Below, one piece after another: positions 167 through 32,546 of a stretch of DNA of 64,000 nucleotides. The stretch is taken from contig JBHLRZ010000001.1 of the NCBI GenBank assembly GCA_048882045.1, forward strand, positions 64,001 to 128,000. The letters are read 5' to 3'. Every line of letters starts with the position of its first letter. Positions within the stretch are counted from its first letter, which is position 1. Below the pieces are notes generated by a model that was not told where the DNA came from, ran no database searches, and saw nothing but the letters and a program-made list of their open reading frames with translations. A program made the translations under genes and the position numbers. The DNA is from Candidatus Thorarchaeota archaeon (lineage in GTDB: Archaea > Asgardarchaeota > Thorarchaeia > Thorarchaeales > Thorarchaeaceae).

Positions 167-337
167 ATGATGAGTCAAAAGAAAGAACGTCCAAAACGAA
201 AGAGAATGGGCAAAGGCAGCAGAAAATGTGTCCGCTGCGGTACACACCAGGCTATCATCAGATCATACGGCTTGAACATGTGCCGACGCTGTTTCAGAGA
301 AACAGCGGAGAAGCTCGGGTTCCGCAAATATCAGTAA
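167..337 (+). CDS. rps14: 30S ribosomal protein uS14 (Zn-binding); absent from ORF track
   Basis: Own translation [56 protein letters not shown]; CxxC..CRRC; SD GAGGTGA upstream. Confidence 0.95.
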
Positions 338-27007: not shown

Positions 27008-27601
27008 ATGGAGCCGACAGTTTATCACATACAAAAAGGCCGCCTCGTGAAGATGAAAGATCCAGGTGCTTTCGGTCGTGGCGACTGCTATCTCGTAGAT
27101 GCAGGCATGAAGATCTATCTATGGATTGGTCCAAACTCTAGTGTTGACGAGAAGTTCCTCACTGCTGCTTCTGCAGTCATGAGAGACACCGCGCGAGAAG
27201 GCAAAGCTGACATCGATAGAATCGAGGGAGGAAATGAGCCAGAAGAGTTCAAGGCACTCTTTGATGACTTCAGTCTTACTGATGAAGACACAGAGGGCAT
27301 TCTCAAGAAGGTTCAGTTAGAAACACGTGAACACAAACTTTGGCGCGTGCATCGTGAGGCGGATGAAACATTCTTCAAAGAGGTTGATCTTGACAGAGCT
27401 TCACTGAAGAGTGACGACGTCTTCATACTCGACACGTTTGACGACATCTATGTTTGGCGAGGTAAGGATGCCACTGCACGAGAGAAGTTTGATGCAACCA
27501 TCCTTGCAAGGAGATATGATGCAGAACGTGTGGGGGTTCAGGAAATCGAACTGATTGAGGAAGGAAGCGAACCAGACGAGTTCTTCAAATCTTTCCCATG
27601 A
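27008..27601 (+). CDS. Two-domain gelsolin-like protein (Asgard 2DGel type)
   Basis: Two repeats: GDCYLVDAG..IYLWIG..S..DEK...EGGNEPEEF and SDDVFILDT..IYVWRG..A...EK...EEGSEPDEF. Confidence 0.92.
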   Translation: MEPTVYHIQKGRLVKMKDPGAFGRGDCYLVDAGMKIYLWIGPNSSVDEKFLTAASAVMRDTAREGKADIDRIEGGNEPEEFKALFDDFSLTDEDTEGILKKVQLETREHKLWRVHREADETFFKEVDLDRASLKSDDVFILDTFDDIYVWRGKDATAREKFDATILARRYDAERVGVQEIELIEEGSEPDEFFKSFP

Positions 27602-27602
27602 A

Positions 27603-29045
27603 TTATACTAACCTGTAGTGACCCGGACGAGGTTCATAGAGGACTCCACTGTCCTTCATCCGAGTCAGGGTCTCTGCAGCAACATGACGTTCGACTCCAG
27701 CCTCCTGAGTAATCTCATCTAGAGTGGGACCTAGAGATCCCTTCTTTCCGGTGTCGAGGGTTCTTATTGCTTTCAATACCTTTGTATTGAACCTATCAAA
27801 CCTGCTGCCCTTGCCCCAGTCCGTCTCTACTCCTTCTTTTAGTTCTGTGAGTTCGATGAACTCCTTTAATGCAGGTTCTAGGATTCGATTCCATGAGGTC
27901 TTGAGGTCCTTGGCAGTGACCTTGTCTTTCCAAAATGCTCTTGCGGTTGATCGAGCCAATCTGAGTGCACTCAAGGGTCGCCCCAGTGCGTCTGCATCAA
28001 GGAGGCTGCCCCGTGCCATTACACCCTCCTCAAGACCAAAGCTCTCCCTTAGTGTATCCAAGCGTGAGAGGACATATTCAGTCCCTGAATCGATTGTACG
28101 CTTCGAAACCTCTGGTGTGAGTAGTTGGAATGTTATGGCCGATTTCAAGATAGGTAGTCGTAGTTCCGATGGATTTCCAGTTTCAACCCAGAAGTCTTCT
28201 GATGCAAGTGCGATTGGTACATCAGGAAGTGAAGCTGTCTGTGACCCTGTGAGTGTTCCCATAGAAACCTCTCTGAATCCTGATGGGTCTATTCGATAGA
28301 CACACAACTGTTCCATCCTCTTCTTCGAGTAGGATCCGATGTCAAAACGTAAGAGCTTGGGAGCCTTGACTCTAACACTCCGAATGCTTCTGAATGCTGA
28401 AGGTCGTCCCTTCATAGAGGGAGGGAGGACATTTCTAATAAAGGACAAAAAACGTCGCACCTTTGTTTGAGATGCAATAGCCTGGATTCCTGTTGTAAGT
28501 CCCCCAATGCTATCCTCATATGGAGGACTTGAAACGAAGAGACGTGCGAACACCCTTTTGCTTGCTTCAGCCATACCTACATGCTCAAAGAGAAGATTGG
28601 AGATATCCTTCAGGGAGGAGGGAGGCTGAATGTTTGTAAGAAAGTCGATGGAGAGAGGCTCGTAGGAATCTGCAGCGATTGCACGTGTGATTGTTTGAGA
28701 ACTCATGAGAGGTTCAGGTGCAACAACTCTCTTCCCAGTCACTTCAATGAAAGCACCATCAGGTGGAAGTGGTTTATCTTCTGGGAATAGAATGAACTCA
28801 CCCTCAAGAAGCCACTGACTGGGGGTGAGCAGTATCATCGACTTGTCCCTTGTGTGATGGACAAATCCACTGTATCGATATAGCTGTCTTGAAACTCGCT
28901 CGCTGAAGTCCTGTAGCAAGCGTGACTCCCATTGTGTGAGTTCGGTTCCAAACTGCCTGCTGTAGAGGTCACTCACACTGACTGCGTCTGCGAGTCTATC
29001 GTGCTTAGAGCCTAATCTTTCAAACAGGTCCTCATACACATCCAT
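27603..29045 (-). CDS. Degenerate MCM-like protein (OB + inactive AAA+ + lid + winged helix), putative
   Basis: PDGAFIEVTG (OB-like), GRPLSALRLARSTARAFWKDKVTAKDL (MCM lid-like), GVLYEPRPGHYRLV (archaeal MCM wH end); no Walker A/B. Confidence 0.6.
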   Translation of the reverse strand: MDVYEDLFERLGSKHDRLADAVSVSDLYSRQFGTELTQWESRLLQDFSERVSRQLYRYSGFVHHTRDKSMILLTPSQWLLEGEFILFPEDKPLPPDGAFIEVTGKRVVAPEPLMSSQTITRAIAADSYEPLSIDFLTNIQPPSSLKDISNLLFEHVGMAEASKRVFARLFVSSPPYEDSIGGLTTGIQAIASQTKVRRFLSFIRNVLPPSMKGRPSAFRSIRSVRVKAPKLLRFDIGSYSKKRMEQLCVYRIDPSGFREVSMGTLTGSQTASLPDVPIALASEDFWVETGNPSELRLPILKSAITFQLLTPEVSKRTIDSGTEYVLSRLDTLRESFGLEEGVMARGSLLDADALGRPLSALRLARSTARAFWKDKVTAKDLKTSWNRILEPALKEFIELTELKEGVETDWGKGSRFDRFNTKVLKAIRTLDTGKKGSLGPTLDEITQEAGVERHVAAETLTRMKDSGVLYEPRPGHYRLV

Positions 29046-30017
29046 CTAACTTTCACCCTCCCTTCGTAGATATTCACGATATGCTTTTGGATAAAGTTCG
29101 GAGAGTTCCTCAATAGTTGGCAACCGTTCACTATATGGAATGTATGACTGACCAAGCTCAACCTTCGATATTTCGTCTTCAAGTAGAGGTCTGAGCTGTT
29201 CATTAGTTTCAAATCCAATGAAGTGTCTGAAGTTGGCTTTTGCAGCAACCGCAGTAGTACCATTTCCCATGAATGGATCTAGAATGATTTCACCTGGTTT
29301 TGACGAGAAGTCCACGCATCTTGAAACTACCGCGAGAGGAAGTGTCGTTGCGTTCTTGGTCTGACCAGTACGGTACTTTCGCTTGAACAACCAAACGTCT
29401 TCTGGATAGTTCTCAATCTTATTGAAGAAGTACTTTTTCGGGTTCTTGACGAAAACTAGGATATGGTAGTGGCTGGAAACGAATCGTTTCTTCGTATATA
29501 CTCCGAAGGGATAGTGCCAAATCAGATGGTTGAGTGTGACTAATCCAGCTTTACGAGCACCACTCAAAACAGATTCGAGATTGGTCCAACCACTGAATAC
29601 GTAGGCTGTTGATGTTGGTTTCATTATACGAGGAAGTTCTGCAAGCCATGCATCAGTGAATGCATGATACTCTTTCACTTCTTCATATCCTGTAACAACT
29701 AGGTTCTCATCCCGGTTATACACACTGCTCTTCCCATCAAAGTCAATTCCAAAGGGTGGATCCGCAATGACAAGATCGATAGAACGGGGAGGCAGTTTTT
29801 TCATTCCTTGAACACAGTCTTCGTATAGGATTGTGTCTAGATCCATACCCTCAAGGAACTCAGTCTTTGCAAACAGCTTCGATGCCTGATTATGACTCCA
29901 GTCATAGGTAGGTCTGAAATAGAACTCTGCAAGATTTGGTATATACCGTTTGCTTTGTTCCTTATCTGATTGGACTTTTTTAGACGGAGTCATGTGTGAG
30001 TTCACAGTCAGATGCAT
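29046..30017 (-). CDS. Site-specific DNA methyltransferase (N6A/N4C, beta class)
   Basis: IADPPF (motif IV) precedes ILDPFMGNGTT (motif I). Confidence 0.9.
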   Translation of the reverse strand: MHLTVNSHMTPSKKVQSDKEQSKRYIPNLAEFYFRPTYDWSHNQASKLFAKTEFLEGMDLDTILYEDCVQGMKKLPPRSIDLVIADPPFGIDFDGKSSVYNRDENLVVTGYEEVKEYHAFTDAWLAELPRIMKPTSTAYVFSGWTNLESVLSGARKAGLVTLNHLIWHYPFGVYTKKRFVSSHYHILVFVKNPKKYFFNKIENYPEDVWLFKRKYRTGQTKNATTLPLAVVSRCVDFSSKPGEIILDPFMGNGTTAVAAKANFRHFIGFETNEQLRPLLEDEISKVELGQSYIPYSERLPTIEELSELYPKAYREYLRREGES

Positions 30018-30063: not shown

Positions 30064-31161
30064 CTACATGAGGTCTGAGGGATCGACACCACGAGACATT
30101 GCACGTTGTGTCATCCAGGCTAGCTGATTCGTAGGTTGCTCTGGTTTGTTTGGAGTTTCAACCCGCTTAATCTTGAGTGCGTCTTCAGGACATACGACTG
30201 CACAGACCCCACATCCAATGCATCGCTTAGGATCTACAACACAGATATCTTCAGGCACACTGAGTGCTCCAAACTGACAGCGATCAATACAGTTCTCGCA
30301 TCCTGTGCAGAGGTCAGCATTTACAGTCATCAAGAAATCGGTTTTGATATATTCACGGGGCTCAGCGACCTTATCTACTCCTCTGAGTACACCGCAGCAA
30401 CACGTGCAGCAGTTGCAGATGAATGTATGACCAGACTGTACGTTGTATGTGCAATGAATTAATCCTGCGTCTTCAGCTTCTTTGAGAAGTCTGAGTGATT
30501 CCTCTTTCGTGATGGGTTTTGTGAGAGGGTCGTTATCAAATGCATTCTCCTTGTTTGGAGCAAATGGGAGACAGACCGATAGCGGATAATCACAACCTTC
30601 GTCAATGAGTGTTTTCTGTTTTCTACAGATACACTCACGAACTCCCCAAGAAGCGGCAGACTCGATTAATTGTTCGGCCTGTTGAAAACTGTGAATCTCG
30701 AGCTCTGTACTCACAGCCTGATTGACTGGTATCACCTGAAAGATGACTGGCTCACTCGTTGTGATCTTCTTGAATCCAGTGACATTTTGAAAATACTGTT
30801 CTAGGATTTGAGCGAACTCTGCGTCCATCCGGCCCAGTTGTTCCTCATAGATGCCAACTGCAAAAGGCAACAGACCATATTTCCTAGCTCCCGCACTCTT
30901 TGACATCCAAGAGCTGATCTGACCCTTCTCGTGCATTGTTTCTAGAAGTGATTCTAGCTCTTCCTTTGAGCGATTCAATCGCATACTTACTTCATCTATA
31001 GTTTCACCAGTAAGCTTCAGTTGACTAGCAAGCTCAGCCTCTTCTGGTTCGAATATCCACTCGAGTAACTTAAGATGTGAACCATCATCAACTGGTGGAA
31101 ATCCATTCGGAATAGTATCGAGAACTTGAGCAAGTCTTTCGTATGGATTCATAGCAATCAC
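30064..31161 (-). CDS. 4Fe-4S ferredoxin-domain protein with N-terminal HTH-like region
   Basis: CICR, ICNCCTCCC, CTGCENCIDRC, CIGCGVCAVVCP. Confidence 0.85.
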   Translation of the reverse strand: MIAMNPYERLAQVLDTIPNGFPPVDDGSHLKLLEWIFEPEEAELASQLKLTGETIDEVSMRLNRSKEELESLLETMHEKGQISSWMSKSAGARKYGLLPFAVGIYEEQLGRMDAEFAQILEQYFQNVTGFKKITTSEPVIFQVIPVNQAVSTELEIHSFQQAEQLIESAASWGVRECICRKQKTLIDEGCDYPLSVCLPFAPNKENAFDNDPLTKPITKEESLRLLKEAEDAGLIHCTYNVQSGHTFICNCCTCCCGVLRGVDKVAEPREYIKTDFLMTVNADLCTGCENCIDRCQFGALSVPEDICVVDPKRCIGCGVCAVVCPEDALKIKRVETPNKPEQPTNQLAWMTQRAMSRGVDPSDLM

Positions 31162-31202: not shown

Positions 31203-32546
31203 TTATTCAGGACAATTCAGTGTGATGCCCAATGGGCTAAGCTCCTCATTCACTTTCGACGTTATGACCTCACAATCTTGTCCTTTTCCAATCAGGATAT
31301 GAGTAAGTGACTGTTGAAATGGAGGAAGGAATGGCAGATTACTTGCTTCTAGGATTGAGTTATAGGCTTCTTTGACCTTGGGTACTTTGAGATAATTCTC
31401 TAGCTCAGTAAGACTCGTCTTTGTGTCAAGGAGCATCTGACTAATCTTCTTTAGAAATGCAGGTTTTGGCACATTGACTGATGGACCAAAAAGTCCTTCA
31501 ACATTCTCTTCAAACCAATTTTGCATCCGATCTATATCATAGACTGGTAAGACAATAGGAGATTCGCCCTCTGTTTCGGGAGCGATAATTCTAATCATCC
31601 CGCGTTTTTCTGCTGACAGTACGAAGTCTGAGAATCTTCTATACCCTAGTTTTTCAGTTTCAAGACCAAGTTCACGGATAGTAATACCGATATCCCTCAG
31701 TGTATATGGCCTGCCCTCGTTGAGTCCGTCTTCTGCTACTTTAGCGAGAAATGCAAAAGCTTCATTGACCTCCTCTGATATCTTAACTGATTGCGGTGGA
31801 AGTTTCAATGGGAGCACCAGAATGGTTGCAGGGAGGTCTCCTTCAAGTTTGACATATCCTTGTGCTTCCGACCATTCGAGGAAGTCATGCCAATGGTCAA
31901 AGCCCATCTCCTTCTCACTAAATTCTGGGTTTAGTGATGTCATAACATGTTTTGCATGTCCCACACCAGGTTTACTCCCAGTCTTTGCAATCAGTCTGAT
32001 GACTTCTTGTAGTTGAACTGCAGCAAGATGTCGCAACTGAACAATGCTTTGGACAGACTCTTCGCAGTCCTCTGGGTGAACACAATCCAATGCTGGTCGG
32101 AATGAAAAGATATCACTGTAAATTGTGGCCAAATCAGGTAGTTCTGATGCAGTGATGATAGGATTACTGATGAGCCACAGTTCGACTCCATGCTCTTTGA
32201 GAGCTCCTGCAATAAGCTTGAAGTCACCATCGCCTGTAATCATCACGTATCTAGTGGTTTCTGGATAGTGCTTCAGATGATCCAGAATATATGCAGCCAT
32301 CTTGTAATCGCTTGCATTGTCTTTGACATCAGGTACATGAATCAGGTCATATCCGATAGAGTATAGTTCCTCAGCCATCTGCCTTCGCAAGTCCCAATCA
32401 GCAAATGCATACATCTTGACGATAGTCCCAGCCTGTCGAATGTGATTGGTCATAGAAAGATGTGTTGCTGACTCATCAGAAACATTCTCGACATCCCAAA
32501 AGACAGCCATGTGTTGAGGGGTCTCCGTGGAGGTCATGTTACTCAC
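31203..32546 (-). CDS. NYN-domain RNase with two OST-HTH/LOTUS domains
   Basis: FWDVEN, DNASD, ITGDGDF (NYN); FSEKEMGFDHWHDFLE and EKLGYRRFSDFV (LOTUS). Confidence 0.85.
   Translation of the reverse strand: MSNMTSTETPQHMAVFWDVENVSDESATHLSMTNHIRQAGTIVKMYAFADWDLRRQMAEELYSIGYDLIHVPDVKDNASDYKMAAYILDHLKHYPETTRYVMITGDGDFKLIAGALKEHGVELWLISNPIITASELPDLATIYSDIFSFRPALDCVHPEDCEESVQSIVQLRHLAAVQLQEVIRLIAKTGSKPGVGHAKHVMTSLNPEFSEKEMGFDHWHDFLEWSEAQGYVKLEGDLPATILVLPLKLPPQSVKISEEVNEAFAFLAKVAEDGLNEGRPYTLRDIGITIRELGLETEKLGYRRFSDFVLSAEKRGMIRIIAPETEGESPIVLPVYDIDRMQNWFEENVEGLFGPSVNVPKPAFLKKISQMLLDTKTSLTELENYLKVPKVKEAYNSILEASNLPFLPPFQQSLTHILIGKGQDCEVITSKVNEELSPLGITLNCPE

Follow-up and report, generated by a model that had tools for sequence, protein, structure and literature searches.

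Introduction

Archaea are usually described as replicating their DNA with a single active MCM homohexamer, and the non-catalytic relatives of this helicase, MCM-BP and MCMDC2, are treated as eukaryotic additions. The present work concerns a gene found at 27603-29045 on the minus strand of a stretch of 64,000 nucleotides from a Candidatus Thorarchaeota archaeon; this whole stretch is called here the window. The product of the gene, hereafter the MCM-like protein, can be identified with high confidence as a dead paralogue that has kept the fold of MCM. A first-pass annotation of the same DNA had already read it as a catalytically dead MCM-like protein, and had also presented it as a possible Asgard counterpart of MCM-BP or MCMDC2 that may chaperone or regulate MCM, on the premise that dead MCM relatives are eukaryotic whereas archaea typically use an active helicase. 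This premise needs correction. An inactive archaeal MCM homologue has already been described, the MCM2 of M. kandleri (3F8T), which shows natural internal deletions and a Walker A motif that is not conserved (PMC2933578; PMC3972481). Dead relatives of MCM are therefore known as a kind, while the family treated here is itself uncovered by any curated model, and no description of it was found in the paper library searched for inactive or MCM-like paralogues in Asgard or Thorarchaeota.

An MCM Fold Without MCM Annotation

No model of Pfam, NCBIfam or PADLOC reaches its threshold for the MCM-like protein. The sub-threshold hints from Pfam and NCBIfam are winged-helix (WH) models only, including the archaeal MCM_WH. 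Pfam MCM_WH_arc gives 12.3 bits (cut-off 26.1) and NCBIfam MCM 14.4 bits (cut-off 940), and neither PF00493 nor MCM_OB has a match in the protein. The predicted structure is far more informative. The AF2 model (pLDDT 85.6, pTM 0.82), with secondary structure assigned by DSSP, retains the overall layout of MCM, with an N-terminus that is short and helical, an OB fold without the zinc element, a shrunken AAA+ core, an MCM-type lid and a C-terminal WH. Foldseek comparison of this model with PDB returned, among the matches listed, only chains of MCM2-7 and archaeal MCM, with E-values of 4e-13 to 2e-10 over 400-600 aligned columns. When VIA-align was run against 48,161 representative chains, eleven MCM entries reached Z 13.4-17.3 over model residues ~45-400, among them MCM7 (Z 17.3), MCM3/5/4/2, MCM8/9 and the M. 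acidophilum MCM; the AAA+ domain of PfMCM (4r7z) was matched at Z 16.7, with 227 residues aligned and a root-mean-square deviation (rmsd) of 4.1 A. AAA+ proteins other than MCM came next, i.e., RavA (12.0), a MoxR-like ATPase (10.8), BchI (9.5) and BrxL (8.7). The likeness, which is well above what chance would produce, includes both the OB and the AAA+ folds and is not confined to the WH, and the first-pass reading of a catalytically dead MCM-fold protein is borne out in this respect. The whole-chain TM-scores of the MCM matches are low (0.3-0.4) and their rmsd is high, which is what the differing domain orientations of a free model and of ring-bound subunits would produce.

The wider family was collected by an exhaustive search of 1.8 billion representatives and comprises proteins of 446-487 amino acids (aa) with 20-32% identity; 32 of these sequences form the family alignment, A1, to which all the column counts given below refer. 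A second member of the family, from a cluster labelled Thaumarchaeota/Nitrososphaerota and only 19% identical, gives a model of similar quality (pLDDT 86.9) that matches the same MCM entries at Z 13.9-17.0. Since the ranking is the same, the MCM fold belongs to the whole family and not to the Thorarchaeota branch alone.

Conservation is unevenly spread over the domains. The N-terminal region (residues 1-55) is the least conserved, with a nearly invariant R30, and may be a remnant of MCM subdomain A. The OB fold, which lacks the zinc-finger insertion, has two invariant residues, G60 and G104. The best-conserved motif of the family is VSSP-x6-GGL (residues 172-183), located just before AAA+ strand 1, in which S172 is found in 31 of the 32 sequences and P174, G181 and G182 in all of them. 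The four segments from which an MCM-like domain order had initially been read are all present and in that order. The OB-like segment, PDGAFIEVTGKR, occupies residues 94-105 and falls in OB strand E99-108 of the model, where hhalign pairs it with the PGDxVxVTGI strand of MCM. The AAA-entry helix corresponds to the LFEHVG...VSSP pair (residues 151-173), that is, to helices H145-152 and H160-171 ahead of AAA+ strand 1, and it is aligned by hhalign, with low per-column confidence, with the pre-Walker-A region IAPSIxG..IK..LLLFGG..RG of MCM. The sensor-2-like segment, GRPLSALRLARSTARA..., spans residues 355-381, contains lid helix H356-370 and is paired with ARQLE..RLAEARA of MCM, while GVLYEPRPGHYRLV, at residues 467-480, forms wing strand E469-479 of the WH and is paired with the WH of MCM.

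Sequence Relationship to MCM

It is in the lid helix and the WH that the sequence of the protein has stayed nearest to MCM, and the family shows significant sequence similarity only to the lid plus WH of archaeal MCM. The A1 profile finds 8x7t_D and 4fdg_B in PDB (E 8e-8 and 9e-8, respectively), profile positions 363-476 being matched to the lid helix and WH of MCM. In the host genome the profile recognises the canonical MCM at E 3e-9 (per genome) through positions 362-476, and in many other Asgard genomes it likewise picks up canonical MCM, always via the same positions. Direct comparison of A1 with the host MCM by hhalign gives 95.6% probability and E 1e-8, with residues 294-473 aligned to MCM 486-690, and the probabilities obtained for the family against MCM range from 95.6 to 96%. 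With relaxed settings (mact 0.05), the alignment with 26 Asgard MCMs becomes collinear from residue 16 to 477 (MCM 91-694), the per-column confidence being high only from about residue 294 on. Some individual members match Pfam models: of the 32 sequences, 10 match MCM_C, 7 MCM_WH_arc and three MCM_lid. The PHROG match of the MCM-like protein is a DNA helicase C-terminus (E 1.8e-4).

The proposed kinship with MCM-BP or MCMDC2 finds no support in these comparisons. Searched with the PF09739 (MCM_bind) hidden Markov model, the whole host genome yields nothing at E <= 1, and MCM_bind is not among the 25 Pfam families listed for the 32 members. Membership of MCM-BP was rejected on this absence of a PF09739 match, and orthology with MCM-BP or MCMDC2 has no support; the family, moreover, is not restricted to Asgard and is absent from most of the Asgard genomes searched.

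The WH deserves separate attention, as it could suggest a different function. In PDB its profile matches include 2m45_A, the WH of SsoMCM (E 2.7e-6), and the WH of P. abyssi RPA32 (E 4e-6); in the second model, the WH superimposes on that of RPA32 with Z 9.4 and an rmsd of 1.4 A. The C-terminal domain also matches, at VIA Z 7-9, many WH domains from transcription factors, and individual family members weakly match Pfam helix-turn-helix models of the TrmB, MarR or LexA type. According to these matches, the protein might be a sequence-specific DNA-binding regulator or a chromatin protein acting via its WH, the MCM-like body being a relic oligomerisation scaffold. Such a role appears quite improbable. 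In sequence, the domain is closest to the WH of MCM and to the C-terminal WH of RPA32, its net charge is near zero across the family, and the OB fold, the pre-AAA+ motif and the lid are as conserved as the WH itself, which argues against a mere scaffold. In addition, the RPA32 entries that were matched are, as judged from their titles, complexes with partner proteins (SMARCAL1, UNG2, PolD). This points to a protein-docking module rather than to a DNA-reading head.

Loss of the ATPase Motifs

The canonical MCM of the host (694 aa) carries GDPGTGKS, CIDEFDKM, AAANP, SRFD, the sensor-2 motif ARQLE and a CxxC...CxxC zinc finger. The MCM-like protein has no GK[ST] at the P-loop position (residues 190-195), no DEFD and no SRFD, and the zinc-finger subdomain B lacks a counterpart, there being one Cys in 480 residues. 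The earlier statement that Walker A, Walker B, SRFD and the zinc finger are missing is therefore correct, and it can now be extended to the family, in which the equivalent columns are not conserved (Table 1). The hhalign alignment shows, besides, deletions in the core at the places where MCM has its helix-2 insert and pre-sensor-1 hairpin, a putative loss that is read from the alignment. Having lost the arginine finger along with both Walker motifs, the protein is presumably neither an MCM-type ATPase nor a translocating helicase, and would be unable to bind or hydrolyse ATP in the manner of MCM.

A few observations could be taken as signs that the protein is still an NTPase, with a non-canonical nucleotide site. 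One cluster labelled Thaumarchaeota/Nitrososphaerota (P0159) is the only one with VGKS at the P-loop-equivalent site (about residue 190), although without Walker B; this VGKS may be left over from an ancestral Walker A, or may have arisen by coincidence. Two acidic residues of the core, E259 and D275, are also conserved. The GK[ST] triplets scattered in some members fall at inconsistent positions. The P-loop-equivalent columns are, however, unconserved in the other 31 sequences, there is neither an hhhhDE motif nor an arginine finger, and the core, with ~110 aa versus ~150 in MCM, is about 40 residues shorter, all of which makes an active site of this sort exceedingly improbable.

Table 1. Features of the MCM-like gene and protein and of the neighbouring genes in the window. 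Column counts refer to the 32 sequences of alignment A1.
Feature	Residues	Position in window	Strand	Basis and remarks
MCM-like gene, very probably an ATPase-dead MCM paralogue		27603..29045	(-)	480 aa, ATG start, stop codon 27603-27605; open reading frame and translation
N-terminal helical region	1-55	28881..29045	(-)	DSSP and pLDDT; residues 1-22 of low confidence
OB fold	56-131	28653..28880	(-)	Five strands, E57-65, 70-74, 83-86, 99-108 and 121-130; corresponds to subdomain C of the MCM N-terminal part
N-to-C linker and pre-AAA+ helices	132-180	28506..28652	(-)	H134-138, H145-152, H160-171
Degenerate AAA+ alpha/beta core	181-290	28176..28505	(-)	Strands 184-189, 218-227, 232-237, 259-266 and 276-280; helices 193-206 and 241-249
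MCM-type AAA+ lid with sensor-2-like helix	291-400	27846..28175	(-)	hhalign, PDB profile matches, Pfam MCM_lid in three family members
End of long linker helix and C-terminal WH	401-480	27606..27845	(-)	Archaeal MCM / RPA32-C type
P-loop equivalent	190-195 (P0001)			Not conserved
Walker B equivalent	232-237			Not conserved
Arginine-finger equivalent	273			Not conserved, L or K mixed; low-confidence part of the alignment
D of former SRFD	D275			30/32
Core acidic residue	E259			Invariant
Sensor-2 position	R356			R/K in 27/32; aligned with MCM sensor-2 Arg
Lid helix	R369			Invariant
Beta-class N6/N4 DNA methyltransferase gene		29046..30017	(-)	PF01555 E 1.9e-36; DPPF and FxGxG motifs intact
Two-domain gelsolin gene		27008-27601	(+)	Converges on the MCM-like gene, 1-nucleotide gap
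365-aa protein gene		30064-31161	(-)	Two 4Fe-4S ferredoxin motifs and Cys-rich middle
NYN nuclease gene		31203-32546	(-)	Weak OST-HTH/LOTUS signal

The Gene and Its Distribution Across Archaea

The MCM-like gene is a real gene under selection, as indicated by its near-constant length, the identity of its homologues and its presence in every genome of its family-level clade. More than 220 homologues of 479-480 aa are found at 58-88% identity, and those that are named carry the label Candidatus Thorarchaeota. A GGAGG-like motif lies ~12 nucleotides upstream of the ATG, and at the junction with the upstream gene this ATG directly abuts the TAG stop codon of the methyltransferase. A 191-aa open reading frame (ORF; 27724-28299, plus strand) runs antisense and wholly within the gene; it is probably spurious, conservation being found in the frame on the other strand. 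In one related genome (G334:C15:114799-116198) the gene is broken into two pieces that overlap, the second of which includes an in-frame TGA; the split may reflect a pseudogene with a frameshift or an error in the assembly.

The distribution within Asgard was examined with the family profile in a phylum sample of 400 genomes. Full-length copies are present in 85 of the 85 other genomes of the window's family-level clade (Thorarchaeota) and in the three genomes (3/3) of a second family, f9, and one distant member of 472 aa occurs in family f32 (locus L087). Thorarchaeota-like copies, with E about 1e-120, were also found in three genomes assigned to three other Asgard families (G006:C10:5287-6696, G306:C155:1190-2584 and G088:C153:3287-4678); these may be binning errors, i.e., mis-binned contigs, or recent transfers. 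The other matches listed in this sample correspond to the C-terminus of canonical MCM, plus a few short ORFs that match the WH end only. Outside the sample, there are cluster members labelled Odinarchaeota, Asgardarchaeia, Methanomethylicaceae and Thaumarchaeota/Nitrososphaerota, and the distribution outside Asgard rests on these source labels. A FastTree phylogeny of the family, midpoint-rooted with no outgroup and used qualitatively, recovers a Thorarchaeota clade with P0131 as its sister. With full-length copies so confined and labels so scattered, it follows that the family is old and patchy, is part of the core gene set only in Thorarchaeota and is not an Asgard hallmark. The idea of an Asgard speciality must be abandoned accordingly, as distant full-length members bear the labels Methanomethylicaceae and Thaumarchaeota/Nitrososphaerota and most of the Asgard genomes searched show canonical MCM only.

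The host genome has exactly one intact MCM gene, with all its motifs; it lies on contig C2, and one of the two Orc1/Cdc6 genes is found about 4 kb away from it. The MCM-like gene is single-copy and lies on contig C1. A second PF00493 match in the genome (G000:C12:50198-50557; L002:1351-2340) was considered as another MCM and rejected, since it belongs to a 329-aa MoxR-type AAA_3 ATPase.

Genomic Neighbourhood

The neighbours of the gene in the window encode the Fe-S protein, the NYN-LOTUS protein, gelsolin (Table 1) and Fpg; the two-domain gelsolin gene is a sign that the genome is of Asgard origin. Synteny was compared in 17 genus-level Thorarchaeota loci. The common order is Fe-S protein, methyltransferase and dead MCM, with gelsolin convergent downstream; the convergent pair formed by gelsolin and the MCM-like gene is kept in 15 of the 17 loci, and the Fe-S protein and NYN-LOTUS genes constitute a conserved upstream block in many of them. 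The methyltransferase directly precedes the MCM-like gene in 10 loci and is separated from it by 1.3 kb in another; the remaining six have no methyltransferase next to the gene. Five genomes without an adjacent methyltransferase were checked, and in each the orthologue was found on another contig. The two genes therefore co-occur, and their adjacency is dispensable. An orthologue of the methyltransferase is present in every Thorarchaeota genome checked, with no nuclease gene nearby, so that it looks like a core 'orphan' methylase.

The abutting genes, their adjacency in most of the loci and their co-occurrence when apart, together with the weak structural match to BrxL (Z 8.7), could mean that the MCM-like protein and the upstream methyltransferase form an epigenetic or restriction-like module of which the former is the accessory subunit, for example a factor that encircles or reads DNA and targets or reads the methyl mark, as in the case of BrxL and its methylase in BREX. 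This is an unlikely option in view of the loci in which the methyltransferase stands elsewhere, and it is also disfavoured by the distant family members examined, none of which has a methyltransferase beside it. Furthermore, the protein has no match to a PADLOC defence family, no nuclease fold or motif and no Lon-like domain of the BrxL type, and the gene sits in a stable part of the core genome, not in a defence island. Restriction-modification or defence was thus discarded as the primary reading, given that there is no PADLOC match and no nuclease, and that the methyltransferase is not an obligate neighbour.

The distant members are found in quite different contexts, which include a tyrosine integrase with a DUF927/AAA protein, IS110 with a TrwB/HerA-like ATPase, toxin-antitoxin clusters, and an HhH-GPD glycosylase. 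In a Methanomethylicaceae contig (L008:7739-8788, minus strand), the family member adjoins Orc1/Cdc6, with Cren7 and TFB close by, and an origin may be located there. A family-B DNA polymerase gene (857 aa; L086:6577-9150, minus strand) faces the dead-MCM gene convergently in family f9. Near two distant members (L087:6092-7367 and L009:1415-2498) there is a protein of ~140 aa that belongs to no Pfam family, followed by a ParA/MinD-type ATPase; in L087 this pair lies directly downstream of the MCM-like gene and in the same orientation. An all-against-all comparison of the neighbours of distant members showed that this is the only recurrent pair, at these two loci, and it is possibly a partition module linked to dead MCM. 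The distant contexts give no strong indication, but a hint, of DNA metabolism and, for part of the lineages, of mobile or variable regions.

Archaeal mobile elements are known to take up MCM genes. In this sense, the MCM-like protein might be a domesticated replication or maintenance protein of a mobile element, either origin-binding or able to hijack the host MCM, which derived from an element-borne MCM and became fixed in the Thorarchaeota chromosome. The integrase, IS110, toxin-antitoxin and ParA contexts of the distant members, as well as the patchy distribution outside Thorarchaeota, fit such an origin. On the contrary, the Thorarchaeota gene sits in a conserved housekeeping neighbourhood in all its 85 genomes, the distant loci are only putative mobile elements, and the matches in the viral structure library (best E 1.6e-10, with no informative names) are weaker than those to cellular MCM; PHROGs, for its part, offers nothing beyond the helicase C-terminus. 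An origin from a mobile element is accordingly regarded as improbable.

A Possible Role in Replication or Repair

Taken as a whole, the most satisfactory explanation is that the MCM-like protein is a paralogue of the replicative helicase that has diverged strongly from MCM, is encoded in single copy and works as a non-catalytic adaptor or mimic in replication or repair, and this explanation is held to be reasonably probable. Its functional half, a non-catalytic role in replication or repair, is evenly poised between being right and wrong. The adaptor or mimic function is suggested because the lid and the WH are the most MCM-like parts and because the sensor-2 position, which acts in trans, stays basic while all the cis elements are gone. 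Soft support comes from the neighbours found elsewhere, among them a family-B DNA polymerase (f9), Orc1/Cdc6 with Cren7 (Methanomethylicaceae), a ParA module, DNA glycosylases and a DNA methyltransferase. The WH of MCM is a protein-docking module, and in archaeal MCM it contributes to recruitment by Orc1/Cdc6. The sensor 2 of MCM acts in trans on the ATP site of the neighbouring subunit (PMC4619765). The MCM-like protein would accordingly use its lid and WH to dock on one of the factors by which MCM is normally recognised, such as Orc1/Cdc6, the face of an MCM subunit or a polymerase, while its OB fold and the basic remnant of its AAA+ core would be available for contact with DNA. The latter contact is plausible because the core is strongly basic in Thorarchaeota (net charge +9; family mean +3). 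That the protein engages an MCM partner through lid and WH is a tentative proposal, and rather doubtful as it stands. A co-fold of the MCM-like protein (residues 25-480, A1) with the host MCM (residues 100-610, A2) gave 0.19 against a mark of 0.32, a value that counts neither for nor against binding.

It is important to note that several points weigh against this explanation. The motif equivalences within the AAA+ core are taken from a stretch where the hhalign alignment has low confidence, and from DSSP. The gene lies close neither to the origin nor to MCM or either of the Orc1/Cdc6 genes; MCM and the Orc1/Cdc6 genes are on a different contig (C2 versus C1). The neighbourhoods of the distant members are heterogeneous, and several of them resemble mobile or variable regions (integrase with DUF927, IS110, toxin-antitoxin); a shared replication role is therefore not established. 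Most of the other Asgard lineages searched manage without the family, so that it is not a general MCM cofactor. Finally, both partner binding and DNA binding are features that we only infer.

A more specific version of the proposal is that the protein imitates the lid and WH of MCM and either occupies the docking site of Orc1/Cdc6 or caps the ATP-site face of MCM, thereby controlling the loading of the helicase. Prokaryotes would then have a licensing regulator or chaperone with an origin separate from that of eukaryotic MCM-BP, possibly a domesticated hijacker of a mobile element. This version is speculative and is considered unlikely in its full form.

Whatever the precise role, a whole Asgard family-level clade and scattered TACK/Asgard lineages maintain a strongly selected MCM-fold pseudo-enzyme that is invisible to Pfam and NCBIfam. 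If it does act on MCM, Orc1/Cdc6 or a polymerase, it would add a new level to the control of replication in the prokaryotes most closely related to eukaryotes, and would be a convergent example of replicative helicases spawning regulators. As a minimum, the family deserves a definition, which would put an end to its annotation as 'hypothetical protein'.

Comparison With Known Systems

The natural reference for the family is canonical archaeal MCM, as represented by the Asgard (8x7t), S. solfataricus (4fdg/6mii) and P. furiosus (4r7z) proteins and by the MCM of the host. With them it shares the same collinear arrangement of OB, AAA+, lid and WH, a basic residue at the position aligned with sensor 2 and a structural likeness that reaches VIA Z 16.7 for archaeal MCM and 17.3 for eukaryotic MCM7. 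In contrast to canonical MCM, the MCM-like protein is ~210 residues shorter, has a reduced helical N-terminus, lacks the zinc-finger subdomain, Walker A and B and the arginine finger, and falls below every Pfam and NCBIfam threshold for MCM. The family descends from MCM but, as it has neither the catalytic nor the zinc-finger features of membership, it should be classed as a family of pseudo-enzymes derived from MCM and not as MCM itself.

BrxL of BREX (PDB 8emc) shares the MCM-like N-terminal and AAA+ fold, and the Thorarchaeota gene often follows a DNA methyltransferase. Unlike BrxL, which is matched at only Z 8.7, the protein ends in a WH instead of a Lon-like domain, its ATPase is dead, it has no PADLOC match and it is accompanied by no other BREX genes. 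MCM-BP (PF09739) and MCMDC2 follow the same logic as the family, being derived from MCM, deprived of a working ATPase and coexisting with the active helicase, a resemblance that is an analogy only. The nearest archaeal precedent is M. kandleri MCM2, likewise a shortened MCM homologue without a conserved Walker A. It matches the model at Z 16.3 over 302 of its 459 residues, tied with active MCMs, and its relation to the family in sequence is marginal (profile E 0.29 to 3f8t_A). In contrast to M. kandleri MCM2, the MCM-like family retains the C-terminal WH and has been conserved across a whole family-level clade.

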